64,000 nt of DNA from Cyanobacteriota bacterium (GCA_033764955.1 JANRIL010000011.1:82638-146637); one strand, 5' to 3'. Counted from the first letter of the stretch, positions 1-64,000 are shown. Numbers and translations: made by a program. Notes: generated by a model not told the origin, from the sequence alone.

Positions 1-29
1 TCCACATCGACACCCCCGCCGCAGGACTG

Positions 30-203: not shown

Positions 204-355
204 TTCATCGACCTTCACTGACGTCACCCACTCCTTAGGACAGCCTAAACCTTTCTTTAGAGGGAGATGGGGTCTGGGGAACGCGCAGGGGAAGGGTGGG
301 GTAAGTTCCCCAGTGGAGAGGTAAAAAAAGGGGATCTCGGGATCCCCAACTTGAT

Positions 356-2125: not shown

Positions 2126-2458
2126 CTACACCCGCTCCGTAGGACTGTTGACACTTGCCAAGATTTGCTCTTGTTGCCGTTGAATAACTTTTAGGGAGGA
2201 GACTCTATGGCAGATTGCAGTTTTTATATCTTCCATTTGGTCAAGTAAGTAGCCGTATGCTTCACCAGCACCATTTTCAGGTAGAGCATCAAAGGCAGCG
2301 CGTAATGAGAAGTAGACCTTGAGTTTGTTTTTCAGCCATTGCGCTTGAGATTCTAGTTCTGCTAGTTGGATAGAATCGGGATTTCTGGCGTTCATTAACT
2401 CCAGGATTCGTTGCTCTAATTCGGTCAAATCAGAACTTAATTTCTGTAAGGCGGTCAT
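2126..2458 (-). CDS. Internally deleted, chimeric Gp157-like protein
   Basis: N-terminus matches 50890-51414 with a 46-codon deletion; C-terminus (LASVNSPTERV) matches the end of 51452-51655. Confidence 0.65.
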   Translation of the reverse strand: MTALQKLSSDLTELEQRILELMNARNPDSIQLAELESQAQWLKNKLKVYFSLRAAFDALPENGAGEAYGYLLDQMEDIKTAICHRVSSLKVIQRQQEQILASVNSPTERV

Positions 2459-2560
2459 CGTTAAGTCTCCACATTTTCACTCCTTTCCGTAGGACTATTT
2501 GGTTTGGGTTTATTTGTTGCGTGGGATAGGGATCCCTTGACTCTGTGACGGTGGACAGGG

Positions 2561-8322: not shown

Positions 8323-8538
8323 TTGAATCGAGAGGATATCAAGGCTGTGTTGCGGAAGCAGGGATATACCCTGTCCCATGCGGCAAGAGAGCTAGGAGTC
8401 AGTAAGCAGGCGTTGACTATGGTTCTGTCTGGCAAGCGTTCATCACGGATTGAGGCATGGATTGCCGAGCAGTTGGCGATGCGACCAGAAGAGGTGTGGC
8501 CGGAACGATACTCACAGGATGAAGCAGGTGAATCTTGA
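8323..8538 (+). CDS. Ner/Nlp-like HTH regulator
   Basis: IKAVLRKQG.TLS...IAEQL...PEEVWPERY. Confidence 0.85.
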   Translation: MNREDIKAVLRKQGYTLSHAARELGVSKQALTMVLSGKRSSRIEAWIAEQLAMRPEEVWPERYSQDEAGES

Positions 8539-13168: not shown

Positions 13169-14458
13169 TCAGAAACCCAGATCGGGCACCGAAACTGTCT
13201 CAACCTTGCCTGCATAGTGACGATGAATCACTTCCGGTTTATTCCCAACCCATTCAGATACTTGTCTGTAAGTGGCATCCTTCCGCTCAATACAATGGCT
13301 AATAAAGGTATCCCGCATCGCATAGGGTTCACGATAATGGCTAACCTTGCCTTCTTCGACCAACTTGGTCACAATCCCAGGAACAAGGGTTTTATGGCGA
13401 TTGGTATATCCCTTCCATGCCCTTCTGAGAAAATTACTGTGATTGAGTTGCTGACCTTCTTTACTTTTAAATACTGGATCCTCAGGCTGAAAGTCCCTAG
13501 GTTTGATTGATTCCAGCAATTGTCGTAATAAGTCATTAATTGGGAATATTCTAGACTGATGATTTTTCGGTGCCTTGCGAATATTAAATCCCGTATTTAC
13601 AGCCTCTTCAAACTTGATCACTCCTGTCTTCAAATTGATATGTTTCCATTGCAGACCCACTGCATCTTCTGGACGAGCCCCTGTGAGAAAGAGAAACTTT
13701 ACGTAGGGATAGTAATAGCCGTAGCGTTTGTGGATACGAAAGGCTTCTAGAATAGCCTGAGCTTCTTCTCGGGTAAACGGATCCGGTTTGGATTCAGAGC
13801 GCACCTTGAGTTGCTTAGCTAATCCGGAAAAGGGATTGTAGTCTACCAATCCACATTCCATTGCCCATTCATAACAGGCGTTGAGCTGTACCAGGTATTT
13901 ACGAGCCGTTACAGGCTTGCAGCCATCCACAAAGCAGAAATCTCTAAACTCAATCGCCCCCAGTCGGTCAGAAATAGTGTGGCCAAATTTGACCAATTTG
14001 CAACGGGTGTTGCTATAGGTCGATCTGATAGTGGTGACCTCAACGCTGGGAGCCTTATAGCTTACGTATCGATCCCACAGATCCAGTGTGGGAACAGTTG
14101 GCTTGTCTGACTCAGCATTCTCCAGTTCTGGCAGGTGGTACTTCTTTAGATAAGGCAGCCAGGAGAATTCCTTGTTCTCAATCAGGGATCCCACCTTTCG
14201 GGCTTCCTTTTCAGCAACACTGACCCCTGCTGGGTTGGCTCTGGCTCCAATAGCAATTTCTTGCTGATGGGGCTTGTCGTGAGGGGATCCAGGTTTAGGG
14301 GGCAACATGGCTCTCAGGTAGAGCTTCAGCCCGCGATGACGAATCACAACCCCCACATTGCCAGCTCTTAGCCTTCCATTGGCTTGAGCTAGCCGTTCTT
14401 GGGTCACTTTGTCCAGATTATCCACACCAGCGGGTTTTGAGGGGGTGAGAGTTTTCAT
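13169..14458 (-). CDS. Tyrosine recombinase/integrase (element 1)
   Basis: TGARPED, K, YAMRDTF, VGN and HY catalytic motifs; adjacent to att. Confidence 0.93.
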   Translation of the reverse strand: MKTLTPSKPAGVDNLDKVTQERLAQANGRLRAGNVGVVIRHRGLKLYLRAMLPPKPGSPHDKPHQQEIAIGARANPAGVSVAEKEARKVGSLIENKEFSWLPYLKKYHLPELENAESDKPTVPTLDLWDRYVSYKAPSVEVTTIRSTYSNTRCKLVKFGHTISDRLGAIEFRDFCFVDGCKPVTARKYLVQLNACYEWAMECGLVDYNPFSGLAKQLKVRSESKPDPFTREEAQAILEAFRIHKRYGYYYPYVKFLFLTGARPEDAVGLQWKHINLKTGVIKFEEAVNTGFNIRKAPKNHQSRIFPINDLLRQLLESIKPRDFQPEDPVFKSKEGQQLNHSNFLRRAWKGYTNRHKTLVPGIVTKLVEEGKVSHYREPYAMRDTFISHCIERKDATYRQVSEWVGNKPEVIHRHYAGKVETVSVPDLGF

Positions 14459-14608: not shown

Positions 14609-14658
14609 GGATGCCAGGAACCAGACTTGAACTGGTGACACGAGGATTTTCAGTCCTC
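14609..14658 (-). repeat. att site: 50-bp duplicate of the tRNA-Phe 3' part
   Basis: Identical to 56868-56917; identity ends at the anticodon stem. Confidence 0.97.
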
Positions 14659-14742: not shown

Positions 14743-15993
14743 ATGATCATGTTAGAGAGACTTCGTGATACATCCAGCGACATTCAGCTACGTCTAAATC
14801 AATCGAATGAACGCTTAAGGCTATCAAATGTTGGAGTAAAGATCGAGCAACGAGGAAGCCGTTTGGCCATTCGGGGAACGTTTCCCCCTAAACCAGGATC
14901 CGGACAGTCAAAACCCAGTCAACAAAGGGTTTATCTGGGGATCCACGCCAACCCATCTGGTTTGAAGGTAGCTGAAGCTAAAGCACGGGAGATTGGGGCG
15001 CAACTGGATCTGGGGACTTTTCGCTGGGAACCTTACATTGCGGAACAGGATGGGACGATCCCTGGCTTGACTCCCCTGGGGTTATGGGATCGATACGCTA
15101 CTTACCGAAAACCCAGCATTGCTGAGACAACTCTACGGAGCACCTACGCCCGTACCCGCAAGAAGTTAGCCCGTTACAACAAATCCATTTCAACGCGGTT
15201 AGAGGCAATCGAGTTCCGAAATTGGTTGCTCCAAGAATGCCGTCCTATAACCGCCAAAAAATATCTGACCCAAGTGAACGCTTGCTACAACTGGGCTATG
15301 AATTGTGGGTTGATCCAAAAGAATCCTTTTGTCGGCATGGCGAAAGAACTGAAAGCACATTCGGATCACAAACCGGATCCCTTTACTGCTAATGAAGTGA
15401 TAGCGATTCTAGGAGCATTTCAAGCCGACAAACGCTACCACTACTACTTGCCTTATGTGAGCTTCCTCTTTCTGACTGGAGCTAGACCTGAAGATGCTGT
15501 GGGTCTGAAGTGGAAACATATCAACTTGCTTAGAGGGGAGATCGAATTTTGTGAGGCTGTGGATACAGGATTTGGTATTCGCAAAGACACCAAAACACAT
15601 AGCTCCCGATGCTTTCCTCTCAATGAAGAACTGAAGACGATGCTCCTACAACTTAAGCCTGAAAAATGGGATCCTGAAATGCCTGTATTCAAAAGCCGTG
15701 AAGGGTGCCAACTAAATCACGCTAATTTCACCCGCCGTGCATGGTATGGGTATAAGAACCGACACAAGACTTTTGTCCCTGGAATCGTAACTCGATTAGC
15801 AGAGACAGGAGAAATTGCCCACTACCGAGAGCCATACGCGATGCGTGATACTTTCATTTCCCACTGTCTGGAAGAAGGGATTAACCCTGTCCAGGTAGCG
15901 CAATGGGTCGGAAATAGCCCTGAAGTGATTCATCGACACTATGCTGGACTGGTGCGCCGAGCATCTGTGCCAGAATTAGGGTTTAGCGCCTAA
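14743..15993 (+). CDS. Tyrosine recombinase/integrase (element 2)
   Basis: Same catalytic motifs; paralog of 13169-14458. Confidence 0.93.
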   Translation: MIMLERLRDTSSDIQLRLNQSNERLRLSNVGVKIEQRGSRLAIRGTFPPKPGSGQSKPSQQRVYLGIHANPSGLKVAEAKAREIGAQLDLGTFRWEPYIAEQDGTIPGLTPLGLWDRYATYRKPSIAETTLRSTYARTRKKLARYNKSISTRLEAIEFRNWLLQECRPITAKKYLTQVNACYNWAMNCGLIQKNPFVGMAKELKAHSDHKPDPFTANEVIAILGAFQADKRYHYYLPYVSFLFLTGARPEDAVGLKWKHINLLRGEIEFCEAVDTGFGIRKDTKTHSSRCFPLNEELKTMLLQLKPEKWDPEMPVFKSREGCQLNHANFTRRAWYGYKNRHKTFVPGIVTRLAETGEIAHYREPYAMRDTFISHCLEEGINPVQVAQWVGNSPEVIHRHYAGLVRRASVPELGFSA

Positions 15994-34609: not shown

Positions 34610-34640
34610 CTTGTGCCTCGCAGATGAGAACAACGGGATC

Positions 34641-34790
34641 CTGGTTGGCGGGCATCCTGACTTAGAGGCATCTTCCTCATCACAGTTGCGGGACAGCGAT
34701 GGATTTACACCACACTTTCCCCCTTTTCGGGGATCCTTAGAGATCCATCCAAAAAGTCCAGCGACTGCTCCTCGCTAGAACCAGCAGGTG
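34641..34790 (-). ncRNA. Cobalamin riboswitch
   Basis: GGGGAAAG..GGTGTAAATCC..CGCTGTCCCGCAACTGT...AAGTCAGGATGCCCGCC; ends approximate. Confidence 0.9.
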
Positions 34791-50653: not shown

Positions 50654-50853
50654 ATAAGCCACTCATTGTGCAATTCACGCCACTGGTGTTGATGGTTTTG
50701 TTGGCAGGGGGATCCCTGGCTATTGCCATTGTGGATCCGAGTTTTCGCCCTCTGTTTGCAGATCTTGCCAAGGTAGGGCTGGGGGGCTACCTTGGACAAT
50801 TGATCCCGCAAATGCAGAGACAGAAAGCAGACGATGAGTTTGGACATAAGTGA
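50650..50853 (+). CDS. Putative holin-like 2-TM protein
   Basis: Homolog of 3939-4127. Confidence 0.6.
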   Translation: MNKPLIVQFTPLVLMVLLAGGSLAIAIVDPSFRPLFADLAKVGLGGYLGQLIPQMQRQKADDEFGHK

Positions 50854-50889
50854 GTCCTACGGTGAGGGTGTAATGATGGAGATAAACCC

Positions 50890-51414
50890 ATGACCACCCT
50901 ACAGAAATTAAGTGATGAATTGAATGAACTGGAGACACAGATACTGGAGTTAGTGGGTGAGGGGGATCCGGATCCCAATCAACTGGCAGAACTAGAATCT
51001 TTGCTGGAAAGCAATGCGACTGAGCGGGACAAGAAACTGGAAGCCTACGCCAGTGTGATTAGCCTATTAGAAACCCGTGCTGCATGGCGCAAAGCAGAAG
51101 CTAAACGCTTGAGTGACCGTGCTCAAATCGATGAATCTCAAGCTCAATGGCTCAAAGAAAATCTGAAAGGGTACTTCTCCAGACACCAGATCAAAATAGT
51201 GGAAACCAACCGCTACCGAATCACCCTGGCTGCCAACGGTGGCAAAGCTCCGTTGATTATCGATGTGGATCCGATTGACCTGCCAGAGGAATACACAATC
51301 ACGGAACTGATTCATAAACCTGACCGTGAAGGGATCCGTACCGCCCTAGAATCTGGTCAGACCTTACCCTTTGCGCGATTAGGAGAACGCGGATCCACTA
51401 TCCGAATCAAGTAA
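50890..51414 (+). CDS. Siphovirus Gp157 family protein
   Basis: KLEAYA...EAKRL, LPEEY...KPDREGIR.ALE.G...A.L......IRIK. Confidence 0.85.
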   Translation: MTTLQKLSDELNELETQILELVGEGDPDPNQLAELESLLESNATERDKKLEAYASVISLLETRAAWRKAEAKRLSDRAQIDESQAQWLKENLKGYFSRHQIKIVETNRYRITLAANGGKAPLIIDVDPIDLPEEYTITELIHKPDREGIRTALESGQTLPFARLGERGSTIRIK

Positions 51415-51451
51415 CAGTCCGTTGGTCAGGGTGATGAGTTGGTATTGACCG

Positions 51452-51655
51452 ATGAATATCCTGACCGGATTATGTAATGCTGCCTGGGATCTCAACTATG
51501 AGCAGTTTTGTGTTTTGTGTGGCTGGGATCCCGACCGTGCCTATGCCGAACAGAAATGGGCAGCCTTCCAACAAATGACCACCTTGATCAACCAGTTTCA
51601 ACCAGAAGTGTTGGAAAAGTTGGCAAGTGCAAACAGTCCTACGGAGCAAGTGTAG
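51452..51655 (+). CDS. Small hypothetical protein
   Basis: ATG 36 nt after the motif. Confidence 0.65.
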   Translation: MNILTGLCNAAWDLNYEQFCVLCGWDPDRAYAEQKWAAFQQMTTLINQFQPEVLEKLASANSPTEQV

Positions 51656-51671
51656 TTGACCCCTGTTGATT

Positions 51672-51833
51672 ATGTACAGAAGTGGTGATCCGATGGTTGA
51701 TTTCCTCGTAGCCCAAGCCGAGTGGGGATCTGTAGAGTTGGAGAGTAATCAGCGAGAGGAGTTGCTGGAAGCAGAATGGGAATTGTGGGAAATAGATGAG
51801 TGGGGATCTCTACCTTTTGACTGCCCATTTTGA
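51672..51833 (+). CDS. Small acidic Trp-rich protein (53 aa)
   Basis: Paralog of 1948-2109. Confidence 0.7.
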   Translation: MYRSGDPMVDFLVAQAEWGSVELESNQREELLEAEWELWEIDEWGSLPFDCPF

Positions 51834-52290
51834 TAGCTGAGGGGGTGCGTTACTTGCCCACCCCCCTTCCCCCGCCCCGCCTGTGGCGACTTTTCTAGGT
51901 ATTGAGGGCTCTCTTCCAGAATTTTGCTGCCCTTGGCTGTCTGATAGAAAAGTGTAGCCAGCCAACCCCAGCACCCCACCCAGCGGCTTGACCCACCCAC
52001 CACCGCGCCGCAACTCCACTCCCCTGATGGAATCCGTTCATCCGTTTCGGAAGAGAATCGGATCCCTGCTGATGGCAACCTTCATGGACAACCAGACAAC
52101 CCAGAAATCGACCCCTGAGCATGGGATCTGCGGCGACTCAGACTTCAAGGGGTGCAAGCATGAACGCCGTCAAAACTTTTTCCTAAAAAGGCAGGTCGGA
52201 AAAACTTCTAGCCCTATGGGTTGCCGTCGCCCCTTTCCGTCTTCTGGCCTTGCTCCCTGGCACGGGGTTACCGATTTTGGAGTTTGTCCT

Positions 52291-52713
52291 ATGTCCATTG
52301 AAAAGTCTGCCCTCTCCAGTAAGTTCCGCCCTCTCACCACCCGTGAACGCGATGAACAGTCAACCTTCCGCAAACAGCAAGCCGTCTTCTACACTCTCCG
52401 TTCCCTGATCTGGGAAGAGTCCAAGGGTCGCATTTTCAAAGATGCTGTGGATGATGGCACGTTGGATCCCATTGCTCCCCCTGTTCGCCAGAAAGACGGA
52501 TCCTACAGCCGACCCGAATATGATCCGGCTGATATCAAGCAGCTTTATGCCGAGGCTTGGGAACAGTTCAAAGATGAGTTCGACCGAGGCTTCATCAAAG
52601 CCAGTCTGGACGAATTGGTGGAATTTGCCCGCAAACATTACCAGCATGACCTGGAAAGTCTGTTGGCTTTGAATGCTGAGCGCAGTGCTGCACGGTTCAA
52701 TCGAGCCATGTAA
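52291..52713 (+). CDS. Conserved hypothetical protein (140 aa)
   Basis: Nearly identical to 1091-1513. Confidence 0.8.
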   Translation: MSIEKSALSSKFRPLTTRERDEQSTFRKQQAVFYTLRSLIWEESKGRIFKDAVDDGTLDPIAPPVRQKDGSYSRPEYDPADIKQLYAEAWEQFKDEFDRGFIKASLDELVEFARKHYQHDLESLLALNAERSAARFNRAM

Positions 52714-53393
52714 GTCTGACAAGACTGGGGGGATCCCTTTCTCCCCAGTTTTTCTTCCCTGAGCCAAGGGATCCCTAAACTTGGATATCGTTTCGACCCG
52801 CTACCGCACGTCGGGCTTATGTTTGTGGTGACGCGGGATCCGCCTCACCAGTGGGGGAACTTGACCCACCCACCCATCGCATTCCCCCACACCCCCGGCT
52901 ATCGCTCTCCCCAATCAGGGATCCAGCCGACCCAGCAATGAGGCACAGAGCACTTGCCCTTCTGACACACCAGAACTGTTGAACTCAGCGAGGATCCCAA
53001 AGGTAGAGCCTACGGCACGCTACGCGAATGATATGAAGCGGCGGCCACCCCATAGTGACACCACGAGATCCGACTCCACTAGTGACACCTATCAGCAACT
53101 CTGCCTTTCAGAGGATCCATCTCTGCCCCATCCAGTTGAATCCGGTAGCGATATCAGCACAGAAGATCCAAGTTGAGGCGAGAAAGGTTGGCCTTGAATC
53201 CAGGGAAACCTGAATCCCACACGCTGGCACCATGCCACTGCCAACAGCCCACAGGCAAAGCGCTGTGAATGCAAGAGTCGTTCCCAACTTTCGCGGCATA
53301 TCCTTGTTCCTGCGGTATTCCACGTTTGGGATCCTCGCTTGCATTGGGATCCGCAGTGGCTAATAACAAGCCATCGTGATTCAGGTTCTTCCC

Positions 53394-53678
53394 ATGTTCA
53401 AGTCCGTTCTTTTCTCTGCTCTCCGCCTTGGTTCTCAATCCATGCTGGTGCGTCGCTCTACCAACTCGTACACAGGGTGGGTGGCTGTGTTCCGGTTCCC
53501 GACAATGGCAGACGCCGCTTACTTCGCTCGTCGCTGGGGTCGTCCGGCTCATGGGGGCTGTGTCATCCGTGAGTTAGGCTCCTTCTTCCAAGTGTCGGTG
53601 CCTGTAGCAGGCTTTCCCCGCCAGTTCTGCTCACAGCCTTGGTTGAGTCTGGGTCGGGCGGCGGCGCTGACGCGCTAG
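53394..53678 (+). CDS. Basic hypothetical protein
   Basis: ORF in the array orientation. Confidence 0.55.
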   Translation: MFKSVLFSALRLGSQSMLVRRSTNSYTGWVAVFRFPTMADAAYFARRWGRPAHGGCVIRELGSFFQVSVPVAGFPRQFCSQPWLSLGRAAALTR

Positions 53679-53880
53679 TTCCTGCTGGGGGTCGGCTGAC
53701 CCCCTTCTTTTCATTCCGCCCCAGGATTCCAAACCATTTGGATAGTGGATCCGCAATTGGCGGACTTACCCACTGGGGAACTTACCCCACCCACCCTGCG
53801 CGTTCCCCAGACCCTATCTCCCTGCTGAAATAGGATCCGACTGTCCTATGGTGCGGGTGAATTTGATAAAGGTGAATGAA

Positions 53881-54054
53881 ATGTCAGATCTACAGGACGG
53901 ATCCAGAGAAACCTATTACGTGGATGACGACGGGAATGTAGTGTTCGCGCTAGCGTGCCCTAGGCGCATGGCGGTGTTTACATTGGATGACGCAGATCCC
54001 GATTCCGGCGAGAAGCTGTTCAATTTTATGACTCGATTACTGGGAGATGATTAG
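53881..54054 (+). CDS. Small acidic hypothetical protein (57 aa)
   Basis: Paralog of 30-203. Confidence 0.7.
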   Translation: MSDLQDGSRETYYVDDDGNVVFALACPRRMAVFTLDDADPDSGEKLFNFMTRLLGDD

Positions 54055-54092
54055 CAGTCCTACGGCGTGGGTGTCGTTGTGGAGACACACCC

Positions 54093-54242
54093 ATGCTCAG
54101 TTCACAAATTGTCGAATGTCTAATGTCACAAGCTCTGGTCTGGATCGCTGAACATTTCCCTGATAGTCAACCAGAGGAAGTTCAGATCTATCAAGAGGTC
54201 TATGTGAACCGGATCCTCAATAAGGTAGCCGAAGAGCTGTAA
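54093..54242 (+). CDS. Small hypothetical protein (49 aa, MLSSQIVECLMSQALVW...)
   Basis: Exactly fills the space between two motif copies; GGAGA RBS. Confidence 0.65.
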   Translation: MLSSQIVECLMSQALVWIAEHFPDSQPEEVQIYQEVYVNRILNKVAEEL

Positions 54243-54276
54243 GTCCTGCGGTAGGGGTGTCGTTGATAGAGAGTTT

Positions 54277-54630
54277 ATGCTCATCACTCATCCCTGTCGT
54301 GTGGCAGTTGTAGGATCCCGCACCTACTGGAATCTCAAAGCCGTGCGGGACTTCATTGCTCAGTTGCCGGCTGGTTGCACCGTCATTTCTGGTGGAGCCA
54401 GAGGCGTTGACCAGACTGCGGAACAAGCCGCCAGAGCAAAAGGGATCCCTGTTCAAATCTACCCAGCCGACTGGCATCAACACGGAAAATTCGCAGGGAT
54501 CCGACGCAACCACGACATTATCCAATCTGCCGATGTAGTCGTCGCCTTCTGGGATGGATCCAGTCCTGGCACTGCTCACAGTATTCAACTTGCCAAGTCG
54601 ATGAATAAACCTATCCAGATCATTTACTGA
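54277..54630 (+). CDS. SLOG-family (DUF2493/YspA-like) protein
   Basis: VVGSR, ISGGARGVD, AGIRRN, FWDGSSPGT. Confidence 0.85.
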   Translation: MLITHPCRVAVVGSRTYWNLKAVRDFIAQLPAGCTVISGGARGVDQTAEQAARAKGIPVQIYPADWHQHGKFAGIRRNHDIIQSADVVVAFWDGSSPGTAHSIQLAKSMNKPIQIIY

Positions 54631-54668
54631 CCAGTCCTACGGCTTGGTTGTAGAGAAGGAGTTTCACC

Positions 54669-54989
54669 ATGTCTAATTCGCAAGCAATCGCTCATCTCAA
54701 TGACGAGTTCCGCAAGTCTCAGAGTGCCTATATTGTCATCACTCCAATGGTGCAATCATTGGGATTTAATATCTCAGGCTTACTCCAATTAGTCAGACAG
54801 TTTAGTATCTTCAACGAAGACAATGATCCTTATGGAGAGCATGACTTTGGATCCATTGACTATAATGGAGAAAAGTATTTCTGGAAAATAGATTACTACG
54901 ACCAGAGCTTAAAATATCTCTCTCCAGATCCATCAGATCCAACCCAGACAAGAAGAGTCATGACAGTGATGCATTCAAGTGAGTATTAG
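54669..54989 (+). CDS. DUF3768 protein
   Basis: IA.LND.FR, NDPYGEHDFG, FWKIDYYD. Confidence 0.9.
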   Translation: MSNSQAIAHLNDEFRKSQSAYIVITPMVQSLGFNISGLLQLVRQFSIFNEDNDPYGEHDFGSIDYNGEKYFWKIDYYDQSLKYLSPDPSDPTQTRRVMTVMHSSEY

Positions 54990-55024
54990 TCCTACGGAAT
55001 GGGTGAAGTCAAGAGGGCTAAACC

Positions 55025-55435
55025 ATGATGACCAAAGAGAAGATGTTGTATTCCCGCACTGCTGCCAGCCGGATCCTGGGAGTCATGCCTCATCACGTTC
55101 AGATCCAAGTCTGGCCTAAAGTTGTCCTGGCTCAGGTAAAGGGATCCCGTCCCCGCTTCCTGTCTCGTAAAACCTTCCACCAAGACTTTGTAGAAACTCG
55201 TAGATCTGCTGCGATGGATCTGCATTGCAAGCTAATTTCCCCAGGTAGATATGTCGTTTTCAATTCAGAGAATGGGCATCGGCATCAAGTCTTACTCCAT
55301 GATTCTGGATTACATTGCACTTGTGACGATTATCAGAATCAGAAGACATTTCTCAAACAGGCTTGTTGCAAACACTGCTATGCAGTTTTGTTTGCCAGTG
55401 GCTACCATAACTTGCAAGAATATATCAATGCCTAA
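55025..55435 (+). CDS. SWIM zinc-finger protein
   Basis: CTCDD...CKH. Confidence 0.8.
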   Translation: MMTKEKMLYSRTAASRILGVMPHHVQIQVWPKVVLAQVKGSRPRFLSRKTFHQDFVETRRSAAMDLHCKLISPGRYVVFNSENGHRHQVLLHDSGLHCTCDDYQNQKTFLKQACCKHCYAVLFASGYHNLQEYINA

Positions 55436-55507
55436 CAATCAAAGTTAGCTGGCTAACTCAGTCCTTTGGTGATTGTGTAATCAAGTTTCTCAAAAGGAGA
55501 AATCATC

Positions 55508-56035
55508 ATGTTTGTGAATGCGTTTGCTACCCCAGATCTGAAAGGGATCACCTACATTCCTGGTCGCCCTTGTCAGTATCGTGGTGACTGTAAATCTGGT
55601 GTGTTCAAAATTGGCGAATCTAAGTTTGTCGGATCCACATTGGCAATGGAGATCCTGTCTTGGCGGACTTTCGAGGATCAGCTCTTCGACTATCCCCATC
55701 AGACTTGGCTGGAAATTCTGTTTGTGGATCCGCGCAATGTCGTCAGCCACATCCTGTTCAAGACCCAGAGCCTGGATAACTTCCTCGATTTCATGCTGGA
55801 TCTGGCATCCCAGGGCAAAGCCATCGGCCAAGGCGTGACCACCGCCAAAATGTCTAAACGCTCCGGTGATCTGGGTGTGTACTACGCGGTGGAGTTTGAG
55901 TGGAAAGAGTCGAGCAAGAAGCGAGTAACCGAACTGCAAGCCTTCGCCAGTGAGCAGGATCTCTATGCTTCCCGCCTAGCCGATGTCCGGCATCTCAAAG
56001 ATGCAGAAGCCCATCCTCTAGAGCTTCCTGCATAG
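55508..56035 (+). CDS. Hypothetical protein
   Basis: 175-aa ORF with an AAGGAG RBS. Confidence 0.75.
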   Translation: MFVNAFATPDLKGITYIPGRPCQYRGDCKSGVFKIGESKFVGSTLAMEILSWRTFEDQLFDYPHQTWLEILFVDPRNVVSHILFKTQSLDNFLDFMLDLASQGKAIGQGVTTAKMSKRSGDLGVYYAVEFEWKESSKKRVTELQAFASEQDLYASRLADVRHLKDAEAHPLELPA

Positions 56036-56583: not shown

Positions 56584-56870
56584 ACAGATGAAATCCTGGG
56601 CTAAAGGCTGGCTGCAAACCACCTATATCGATGACCGTAGTGGATTGTCATCAATGGCCCTGAGCCTTTAAGCCCTACTGCACTAACTGAGCAGGGGAAG
56701 CTGTGCCCCCAGCCCCAAAACCTGGACTAAAGCTGGACTAAATTTTGCCCTACATCGGGCGACATCAAGCAACATCCAGCGACATTACCCTCGCCAAGTT
56801 AGCCAACATTCAGCCAGCCAAAAGCTTGCCCAGAAAGGTTTCCGGACGTTAGAATGAGGCTTGGAGCGGA

Positions 56871-56943
<73 letters not shown>

Positions 56944-63720: not shown

Positions 63721-63796
63721 GGCTGCCCTCAAACCACTGCAGAAGATCTTGTGGGGAATGAAAGTCGAGCAGACTCTCACTTAGCCTACTCGGCGG

Positions 63797-63999
63797 GAAG
63801 CCCCGCACCGTAACCGATAGGGTCGGTGTCGGGATGATAGCCAGGGTCGGCGTACTCCGCACAATTTGGACTAGCCGACCAACTGTTGCTATGGTGTTTC
63901 CAAGTGGGGTTGGGCGTCGCCTCACTATAAAACGCGAAGTCCTGAAAAGGATGGAGAAGCCCACACTGTATGTTTGCATCGGTGATGGGAGTACGTCAC
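63797..63999 (+). mobile_element. IS200/IS605/IS607-type right-end (omegaRNA-like) remnant
   Basis: Two related hairpins GAAGCCC..CAC.GTA...TCGGTG..GGGA; the second ends in GTCAC. Confidence 0.5.
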
Positions 64000-64000
64000 G

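Follow-up and report, generated by a model that had tools for sequence, protein, structure and literature searches.

Results

The window analysed here, a 64,000-nt stretch of a Cyanobacteriota bacterium genome (G000; GCA_033764955.1 JANRIL010000011.1:82638-146637), carries arrays of small genes that belong to two mobile elements. Both are members of a family of tRNA-integrating cyanobacterial elements, whose gene content comprises an integrase, helicases, an S24 repressor and small DNA-metabolism genes in arrays. Element 2 is integrated at a tRNA-Phe gene (56871..56943, minus strand), and a 50-nt repeat at 56868-56917 is identical to 14609-14658. The arrays adjoin restriction-modification, helicase-methylase and CRISPR-Cas loci.

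On the plus strand of element 2, a short conserved box precedes one small gene after another. The first copy (50853..50870) lies ahead of a Gp157 gene (50890-51414); it is followed by a degenerate copy (AGTCCGTTGG..GGGTG; 51416..51433) ahead of a 67-aa ORF (51452-51655), and by a copy with AAGTG as its second block (51635..51652), through which the upstream ORF reads, ahead of a 53-aa ORF (51672-51833). Sub-array 2 begins 137 nt downstream of a terminator-like hairpin with the box at 53842..53859, ahead of a 57-aa ORF (53881-54054). Further copies stand ahead of a 49-aa ORF (box 54056..54073; ORF 54093-54242), a SLOG/YAcAr gene (box 54242..54259; gene 54277-54630), a DUF3768 gene (box with GGTTG, 54633..54650; gene 54669-54989) and the gene of a small SWIM-type protein (box 54988..55005; gene 55025-55435). 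A variant box (AGTCCTTTGG TGA TTGTG; 55460..55477) is found 48 nt ahead of a 175-aa gene (55508-56035), whose protein model weakly resembles OB folds. Element 1 is inverted and bears its boxes on the minus strand: at 11..28, where the gene leaves the window at the left edge; at 225..242, ahead of a paralogue of the 57-aa ORF; at 2129..2146, ahead of the ORF at 1948-2109; and, with a 4-nt spacer, at 2478..2496, ahead of a 110-aa ORF derived from Gp157 (2126-2458).

Two further plus-strand genes in this part of element 2 are unboxed. One encodes p140, a 140-aa all-helical protein (52291..52713), and has its own upstream region and its own terminator, a terminator-like hairpin with a T run (52727..52745). 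The other is a 100-aa ORF (53376..53678) between a C-rich repeat and a second terminator-like hairpin (53687-53704). This C-rich sequence (GGGGAACTTGACCCACCCACCC) is a second element-specific repeat; it is found after terminators, and in both G000 and the Waterburya locus a copy precedes the first box. One plus-strand copy in the window (52854..52875) lies upstream of the 100-aa ORF; another (53775..53796), set within a 9-bp inverted repeat (CTGGGGAAC..GTTCCCCAG), precedes the box that opens sub-array 2 by 67 nt. An Rfam 15 scan of the window reached threshold for tRNA and a cobalamin riboswitch only, and within the array nothing at E <=1 appeared except a chance-level sRNA match.

The pattern AGTCCTRCGG-N3-GGGTG matches the window 10 times when up to two mismatches are allowed; shuffled sequences averaged 0.09 matches, and none of 100 shuffles reached 10. 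Three degenerate copies (51416, 55460 and 2478-2496 on the minus strand) were added by reading the sequence, so that all 13 copies listed in the initial annotation are present, nine in element 2 and four in element 1, and each is co-oriented with its downstream gene, as had been claimed. When sites were scored over 11 informative positions, 12 of the 13 window sites with at least 10 of them fell within the arrays. The reported spacing also holds, with the start codon 35-40 nt after the box start and 48 nt in one copy, as does the overlap or adjacency with the preceding stop codon at 50853, 51416, 54056, 54242, 54633 and 54988. The box also predicted small ORFs at 51672, 54093 and 1948-2109; these are genuine and have been conserved in the paralogues.

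The conserved element is longer than first described, reaching to about position 25, and forty sites give the consensus AGTCCTnCGG-N3/4-nnGTG-AAnTTnA. The box is thus an asymmetric, bipartite cis-element some 25 nt long, with a spacer of 3 nt (4 nt in three sites) and block centres about one helical turn apart. Its second block varies by lineage, being GGGTG in G000 and TTGTG, GAGTG or AAGTG elsewhere. The 3' end lies 14-30 nt ahead of the ATG, with a separate GGAG-type Shine-Dalgarno sequence (SD) in between. Leaders are typically 17-21 nt long and reach 30 nt; that of the 175-aa gene is 27-30 nt in four lineages, against 17-21 nt for other genes.

Elements 1 and 2 have paralogous arrays, 83-87% identical, so only the roughly ten within-array copies ahead of unrelated genes are independent: the count of 13 stands, while copies ahead of the same gene in the two elements are paralogous. 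Over 37 pairs of paralogous units, which are themselves not independent, block 1 differed in 13 of 333 site comparisons (3.9%) and block 2 in 19 of 185 (10.3%), compared with 37 of 111 (33%) in the spacer and 14 of 37 (38%) at position 7. Flank divergence in the same pairs was 36% over the upstream 30 nt and 25% in the leader. Judged by this divergence pattern, both blocks are under selection.

A scan of the whole genome (3.8 Mb) found 29 sites at up to two mismatches. Paralogous arrays on contigs C14, C10, C25 and C11 hold 22 of these; the seven elsewhere comprise six with two mismatches and one on C40 with no gene after it. The box is biased to the arrays rather than spread genome-wide, and its reported absence from cargo and host genes was borne out. 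Among 401 sampled cyanobacterial genomes, 399 were at background (exact matches: 16 in G000, two in G013 and one in each of nine genomes; a reversed control pattern gave six single matches). In G162 all six exact matches lie within one array, and two congeners have none. Related tRNA-integrating elements from four or more cyanobacterial lineages also carry the box, as do metagenome contigs, and it is on the gene strand throughout. Across 34 loci, the strict pattern matched the plus strand in six loci and the minus strand in none.

Such a strand lock could also be expected of a polar DNA signal unrelated to expression, serving transfer, packaging, uptake or protection and tolerated only in intergenic gaps, while the constant distance to the ATG would simply follow from how tightly the genes are packed. 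Because the array genes are all co-oriented, a fixed orientation towards the genes is indistinguishable from one towards the element ends, and the G162 element does encode a HerA/FtsK-like ATPase. Yet the box is never found inside the long genes, cargo or replication modules of the same elements, it flips together with the genes in the inverted element 1, and an FtsK-like gene was not found in the G000 elements. We regard this explanation as very improbable.

Gene order and content differ between lineages in box-carrying units, which would suit a crossover point, either site-specific as in integrons or based on short homology as at the PeSLs of T4-type phages (PMC2839356), that moves cassettes of box plus ORF. 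In G000 the SLOG and DUF3768 genes, three small ORFs and the unboxed 100-aa ORF lie between p140 and SWIM, an insert missing from the Xenococcaceae and Waterburya loci; G162 has two additional boxed ORFs between SWIM and the 175-aa gene; and one boxed gene precedes p140 in L157 and L160 and follows it in L158. Homology between L158 and L162 even begins exactly at the first base of the box. Most breakpoints, however, miss it. Among recent paralogues, breaks fall inside genes or away from the box, including the junctions of the Gp157/67-aa deletion and of the C11 remnant and the point of divergence 100 nt after the stop codon of the 175-aa gene, and the junctions in L157, L158 and L160 lie 29-39 nt or about 200 nt from a box, beside other repeats. 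The box has no inverted repeat and no attC-like fold, and the elements no integron integrase: in Pfam scans their integrases were phage-type only, at the tRNA-distal end some 36-40 kb from the array. Against an integron attC array also stand the asymmetry of the box, the lack of a common fold in 19 leaders and the lack of internal complementarity in the logo. The proposal of a cassette junction is thus not supported, and we give recombination at the box very little credence.

A second proposal, that the box is an RNA-level signal, is kept as a rival. The array would then be transcribed from upstream promoters, for example at the C-rich repeat, and the box in each leader would be a single-stranded binding site for a protein or RNA, controlling translation initiation, re-initiation or processing per cistron, by analogy with the start-associated sequence (SAS) of Cluster K mycobacteriophages. 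It is consistent with this that the box always lies between an upstream stop codon and a good SD and ATG, usually 17-21 nt from the latter, that block 1 is mostly unpaired in predicted folds, and that SAS offers a precedent as an asymmetric repeat in one orientation at non-structural gene starts and not in the host (PMC3203893). Moreover, the conserved C-rich repeat ahead of the first box in G000 and the Waterburya locus may itself be the promoter, in which case the box would be transcribed rather than start transcription. RNA structure, covariation and rRNA complementarity were nevertheless not found. The 19 leaders share no fold (mean z -0.40), and the sole candidate helix (GUCC/GGGU) is broken, without compensation, where block 2 is TTGTG or AAGTG. 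Pairing with the 16S rRNA of a relative (-11.5 kcal/mol) was equalled or beaten by 71% of 300 shuffles (-12.5 +/- 1.7), and the distance to the ATG ranges from 14 to 30 nt.

Evidence for a start of transcription at the box itself comes from L165: downstream of the p140 stop codon lie a hairpin (-21.9 kcal/mol) and a T6 run directly abutting the box, and after the box come the SD and ATG; this is one of 54 candidate sites, the other 53 having no adjacent terminator. Such an arrangement leaves no space for another promoter and would starve the leader of transcripts from upstream, which argues against an RNA signal. Also in favour of a promoter, sub-array 2 of the window opens downstream of a terminator-like hairpin, and no sigma-70 match was found from 53704 to 53880. 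That leader length is gene-specific likewise fits a promoter better than a fixed translational spacing. Taken together, we consider the RNA-level explanation possible but doubtful.

Many asymmetric, orientation-locked sites in short gaps that overlap stop codons are also what would be seen if an element protein, a monomer with two domains, bound the box and halted RNA polymerase during elongation in one orientation, so that the array would stay silent in the integrated state. The sites of L5-type repressors are of this kind, being asymmetric, orientation-locked and present in many copies in short intergenic spaces (PMC9283540). The bipartite 10+5 layout would suit such a monomer and the elements encode repressors, but no homologue of a two-domain repressor of this kind was identified, L5-type sites double as operators at promoters, and neither G000 nor G162 has a box, degenerate copies included, in its repressor or early-promoter regions. 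Nor do the repressor or integrase regions of these genomes hold a site with at least 9 of 11 positions and a full GTG block; the boxes are confined to one gene array instead of being spread over the element. The element repressors are moreover S24/CI-type, a class that binds symmetric operators. We therefore judge this kind of silencing unlikely.

Discussion

We have described a conserved box that accompanies unrelated small genes in a family of cyanobacterial integrative elements. It is most likely a private gene-expression signal, with a compact promoter as its probable form, rather than a recombination site of the integron kind. The initial annotation had offered a compact promoter or activator site, with a likeness to SigF promoters, as one of three readings. 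We retain an element-specific compact promoter or activator site as the best reading of the sequence, at a probability of roughly 0.4. Speaking for it are the selection on both blocks, the distance of about one helical turn between their centres, the strand lock, the restriction of the box to the elements, the terminators ahead of the box in L165 and of sub-array 2, and the gene-specific leader length. The SigF part does not survive. The promoters of SigF, a group 3 sigma factor, have TAGGC at -32 and GGTAA at -12 (PMC2532724), and the GGGTG of G000 does fit the GGGT[A/G] pattern used to search for the -12 element in Synechocystis (PMC2532724). However, the upstream block of the box is different and ends 3 nt before the GTG block, block 2 varies, and no TAGGC-like -32 element lies at the right distance. 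Placing T17 at -12 would, furthermore, put the start site within or after the SD.

Canonical -10 and -35 elements are also absent: with -35/-10 hexamers 16-18 nt apart, an A at -11 and a T at -7 as criteria, no match to the sigma-70 consensus overlaps any box. If a -10 element is positioned to keep the SD in the transcript, the logo after GTG does not fit it. Genes for a sigma factor or RNA polymerase were not found in the elements either. These absences count against a promoter. We infer that the box most likely acts on double-stranded DNA as a compact, element-specific promoter or an activator-dependent internal promoter, at which the host RNA polymerase and a specificity factor encoded by the element would start transcription just downstream of the GTG and A-T-rich part. 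Each boxed gene would thereby receive its own short leader, typically of 17-21 nt and up to 30 nt, with its own SD. Genes newly entering the array would need a box for expression, which would explain the units of box, leader and ORF.

Candidates for the specificity factor are p140, which is unboxed and separately terminated, and the small SWIM protein, both of which travel with the box. Among 34 loci with a 175-aa homologue, which are related and so not independent, plus-strand boxes occur in seven of the eight with a SWIM homologue and in none of the 26 without one, and all four with a p140 or p140-like gene carry boxes. p140 has no box in the three lineages inspected and adjoins boxed genes in other lineages. 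No solved fold matched its model (best Foldseek E 0.79), and the role proposed for it is therefore conjectural. It may even be that p140 or SWIM redirects the host RNA polymerase to a 25-nt promoter devoid of hexamers, a form of private transcription in which, as each gene has its own copy, modules of box plus ORF could be reshuffled between elements; this more specific proposal is tentative, and we would not call it likely.

Similar arrangements are known from phages. SAS and ESAS of Cluster K are likewise short asymmetric repeats in one orientation upstream of unrelated non-structural gene starts, with occasional stop-codon overlap, absence from the host and conservation across sub-lineages (PMC3203893). 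SAS, however, measures 13 bp, includes the SD core and is 3-7 bp away from the start codon (PMC3203893), whereas the box is about 25 nt, has two blocks around a free spacer, ends 14-30 nt before the ATG upstream of a separate SD, and is carried by cyanobacterial integrative elements instead of mycobacteriophages. Cluster A operators and stoperators share with the box their asymmetry, more than 20 copies per genome or element family, short intergenic positions, orientation with transcription and a design suited to one protein with two DNA-binding modules (PMC9283540), but are 13-mers that occur also at the early promoter and genome-wide (PMC9283540), while the box is missing from the repressor region and keeps a near-constant distance to the start codon. 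The PeSLs of T4-type phages, too, are small regulatory repeats flanking small non-essential genes in plastic regions, where units differ between relatives (PMC2839356). PeSLs join a stem-loop terminator to an early, sigma-70-like promoter (PMC2839356), whereas the box lacks sigma-70 hexamers and directly follows a terminator at one of 54 candidate sites, that in L165. Integron cassettes, finally, also form arrays of co-oriented unrelated small genes with a recurring sequence between them, but attC sites are hairpins downstream of the ORF, whereas the box has no imperfect inverted repeat or hairpin, lies upstream and is not adjoined by an IntI-type integrase.

The box represents a second, phylogenetically distant case of the unexplained phenomenon of start-associated sequences. 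Many anti-defence and host-takeover functions come from arrays of uncharacterised small genes in mobile elements, and a short, portable and highly specific signal at each gene would help to find them, and the elements that carry them, in genomes and metagenomes of cyanobacteria. The signal would also point to an undescribed regulator, p140 and SWIM being the candidates, and, if it is a promoter, could serve as an orthogonal expression part for cyanobacteria. Should private transcription prove true, accessory or anti-defence genes would have, in box and ORF, an expression unit that can be carried between elements, and this family of tRNA-integrating elements, not described before, would use a specificity factor of a new kind.

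Results

The box consists of two conserved blocks, AGTCCTnCGG (block 1) and nnGTG (block 2), separated by a spacer of three or four nucleotides and followed by AAnTTnA, and it precedes genes of paralogous small-gene arrays in two tRNA-integrating elements. The pattern AGTCCTACGG-N3-GGGTG was matched ten times in the window at two or fewer mismatches, against 0.09 times in shuffled sequences (ten was reached in 0 of 100 shuffles), and 12 of the 13 window sites matching at least 10 of the 11 informative positions lie within the arrays. Reading the sequence itself added three degenerate copies (51416, 55460 and, on the minus strand with a 4-nt spacer, 2478-2496), giving the nine copies in element 2 and four in element 1 that the initial annotation had counted. 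As it had also described, the box always shares its strand with the gene it precedes, the preceding stop codon overlaps it or falls within 2 nt (six of nine element-2 copies), and the genes that follow are unrelated. About ten different families each have a box: Gp157, ORFs of 67, 53, 57 and 49 aa, SLOG/YAcAr, DUF3768, a small SWIM-type protein, a 175-aa protein and one extra element 1 ORF. The distance from box start to start codon was 35-40 nt rather than the 35-39 nt proposed, and the exceptional 48 nt of the 175-aa gene was borne out. Positional bias held genome-wide, 22 of 29 sites (two or fewer mismatches) falling within small-gene arrays of contigs C14 (two arrays), C10, C25 and C11. 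By eye only, GGATCC and GGGATCCC are strikingly frequent at 50700-55600, both within and between genes, and look like a palindrome that is highly iterated in the host genome.

With 83-87% identity over 2.4 kb the arrays are paralogous, so that the box copies are not all independent and the independent evidence is the roughly ten boxed gene families. A contig break seems to have divided a single array between C25 and C10; on C11 there is an array remnant. Among 37 non-independent pairs of paralogous units, differences amounted to 13 of 333 site comparisons in block 1 and 19 of 185 in block 2, compared with 37 of 111 in the spacer, 14 of 37 at position 7, 36% in the upstream 30 nt and 25% in the leader. 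Both blocks are thus strongly conserved, in contrast to the spacer, position 7 and the flanks. The logo of 40 sites (A G T C C T n C G G t r w k k G T G A A r T T n A) extends conservation to position 25 and leaves position 7 free. In the C10 array (L002, 624-1840) SLOG is broken (67 aa versus 117) and so is SWIM (no ORF of at least 40 aa), and both boxes are intact.

The two integrative elements are related and meet head to head; their integrases occupy 13169-14458 (minus strand) and 14743-15993 (plus strand). Element 2 (about 42 kb) is bounded by a 50-nt direct repeat of the 3' part of tRNA-Phe, at 14609-14658 and, inside the tRNA, at 56868-56917; from its integrase end it encodes the integrase, a PIN protein, a UvrD-like helicase, an AAA_25 primase-helicase, HTH_35 and an S24 repressor, and next come metal-resistance cargo, a GH108 lysozyme and the array. 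On the minus strand at 34630-34767, this cargo contains a cobalamin riboswitch (Rfam RF00174, 43.3 bits). Element 1 is inverted, its array extending left of the window, and past the array (L001, 294-13500) it encodes an SNF2 protein, a 2378-aa DEAD/UvrD helicase and an MmeI/Eco57I-like methylase. On C10 the array (L002, 2531-11904) borders a type I restriction-modification cluster that includes Fic and an AbiEii-like ATPase; the C11 remnant (L004, 7858-13731) borders a WYL regulator and type I-E cas3/cse1/cse2. In all, defence loci adjoin three of the paralogous arrays (L001, L002 and L004). Neither a sigma factor nor an RNA polymerase nor an integron integrase was found among the genes of the elements, and the small array proteins matched no NCBIfam or PHROGs family. 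A repeat of about 220 nt at 63781-64000, with copies 96-99% identical at the ends of many of the assembly's contigs, is probably an assembly-breaking insertion sequence.

Of 401 sampled cyanobacterial genomes, 399 had the exact box at background level, nine having one exact match each compared with six matches of a reversed control; only the studied assembly (16 exact matches) and G013 (two exact, and five in one array at one mismatch or fewer) stood out. In viral contigs the exact box occurred at 52 loci, as single matches at chance level, and the array was found in no phage. A protein-led search showed that the box is both more widely spread and more degenerate than the pattern first described. 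In G162, a genome of another family, an integrative element of about 26 kb carries 9-10 co-oriented copies of (A)GTCCTTCGG-N3/4-TTGTG/GGGTG/GAGTG before SLOG-neighbouring ORFs, DUF3768, a UvrD-like helicase, SWIM, the 175-aa homologue and Gp157; these genes are ordered differently there, and no copies occur elsewhere in that genome or in two congeners. This element (C19, 32280-58600; L116, L113 and L117) also encodes a HerA/FtsK/TrwB-like ATPase, an SNase, DUF4417 and a YdjM protein, without capsid genes, and another conserved leader, (A)CTCATTAGGAGACA, is common to some unboxed genes of its array. Xenococcaceae- and Waterburya-titled loci (L120, L122 and L123) have 3-5 boxed genes apiece, and more than 20 further boxed genes were reached on metagenome contigs via p140, a gene for a 140-aa protein.

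Two genes inside the array have no box, p140 (52291-52713) and a 100-aa ORF, and both are followed by a terminator-like hairpin and T run. The box is absent from p140 in all three lineages inspected, and the terminator 3' of it recurs in the studied assembly, Waterburya, L163 and L165. Ahead of every transcription unit that follows such terminators, namely the 100-aa ORF and sub-array 2 (from 53842), stands a second, C-rich repeat, GGGGAACTT(G)ACCCCACCCACCC and then CGC(G/A)TTCCCC, at 52854-52875 and 53775-53796 on the plus strand, 290-311 and 920-941 on the minus strand, C10 182 and C25 15665. It is specific to the elements and lies inside a 9-bp inverted repeat, CTGGGGAAC..GTTCCCCAG; a loose genome scan was too permissive, the meaningful matches being only the six long ones inside arrays. 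The Waterburya locus L122 has a similar C-rich stretch (8330-8360) 3' of the p140 terminator. This repeat may be the real promoter or operator, and an ECF-type promoter is one conceivable reading, by likeness to the -35 motif of that class.

The 175-aa protein (gene 55508-56035, plus strand) belongs to a family restricted to cyanobacteria, in which each of the 37 clusters carries a hypothetical annotation. Modelled with confidence (pLDDT 84.5), it had no significant structural match, the best weak ones (E 0.008-0.06) being ssDNA binders with an OB fold, among them PrgE of plasmid pCF10 and RPA, and on these grounds a sigma-like factor was rejected. A fold search with the confident, all-helical p140 model likewise gave no informative match to solved folds. 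Among 34 related loci with a 175-aa homologue, plus-strand boxes were present in 7 of the 8 that have a SWIM homologue versus 0 of the 26 that do not, and strict-pattern matches on the minus strand in 0 of 34; boxes were present in all four loci, again related, having p140 or a p140-like gene. This co-occurrence with SWIM and p140 suggests that one of these proteins might act as a trans factor for the box. In the Xenococcaceae and Waterburya loci p140, SWIM and the 175-aa gene stand side by side; in the studied assembly and G162 extra genes, mostly boxed, are inserted among them.

Discussion

The evidence points to a box that a protein would recognise sequence-specifically, with duplex DNA as the simplest substrate: its two conserved blocks lie about one helical turn apart across a free spacer of 3-4 nt, a conserved A/T-rich tail follows the GTG, and it is confined to the elements, with block 1 conserved across distant hosts. 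Our leading, still tentative reading is a candidate promoter or activator site (probability roughly 0.4), with a mechanism inferred from genomic sequence. Promoter function is favoured by three observations. In L165 a strong hairpin (-21.9 kcal/mol) and T6 come after the p140 stop and directly abut the box, a Shine-Dalgarno sequence and ATG; in the window, sub-array 2 starts past a terminator-like hairpin, and its box is preceded by no sigma-70 match; and leader length is gene-specific rather than fixed, the 175-aa gene having 27-30 nt in four lineages. The compact promoter or activator site of the initial annotation remains the leading reading, without the likeness to SigF: the box fits neither a SigF nor a sigma-70 promoter in hexamers and layout.

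What chiefly weakens the promoter reading is the C-rich repeat that precedes the first box and could be the true promoter; the box would then be inside the transcript, like the start-associated sequences of Cluster K mycobacteriophages, a reading that we regard as rather unlikely. The closest known counterparts are those sequences, the stoperators of Cluster A phages and the PeSL cassettes of T4-type phages, with which the box has its logic in common, not its sequence, size, position or host; it misses at least one defining feature of each. A stoperator-like role is the more improbable of the two alternatives, and an immunity-repressor operator was rejected, the repressor and integrase regions of the studied assembly and G162 being free of copies.

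A signal for RNA processing or translation re-initiation, also proposed initially, found neither structural nor rRNA support: z averaged -0.40 over 19 leaders, which had no fold in common, nothing in Rfam matched the box, and its pairing with the 16S rRNA of the relative G001 (the studied assembly being without 16S) was no better than that of shuffles. A GUCC/GGGU hairpin and the UNCG-like look of CCTnCGG were both rejected for want of a stem partner and of compensation; the helix of the former, the only one conceivable, breaks uncompensated where block 2 is TTGTG or AAGTG.

The evidence speaks against the integron-like cassette junction: the box has no hairpin, IntI was not found, and the three rearrangements among paralogues of the studied assembly all map away from the box. 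At least the left break of a Gp157/67-aa deletion is inside a gene, as is the C11 junction, and the third is a divergence point 100 nt past the 175-aa stop. On related metagenome contigs a boxed gene shifts position relative to p140, and one homology block begins exactly at the box; other junctions are 29-39 or about 200 nt away, beside other repeats.

Among the literature matches listed, those to the box sequence on either strand were only unrelated primers, and those for DUF3768 or YAcAr did not treat these arrays. The family of cyanobacterial elements that carries the box is apparently undescribed.
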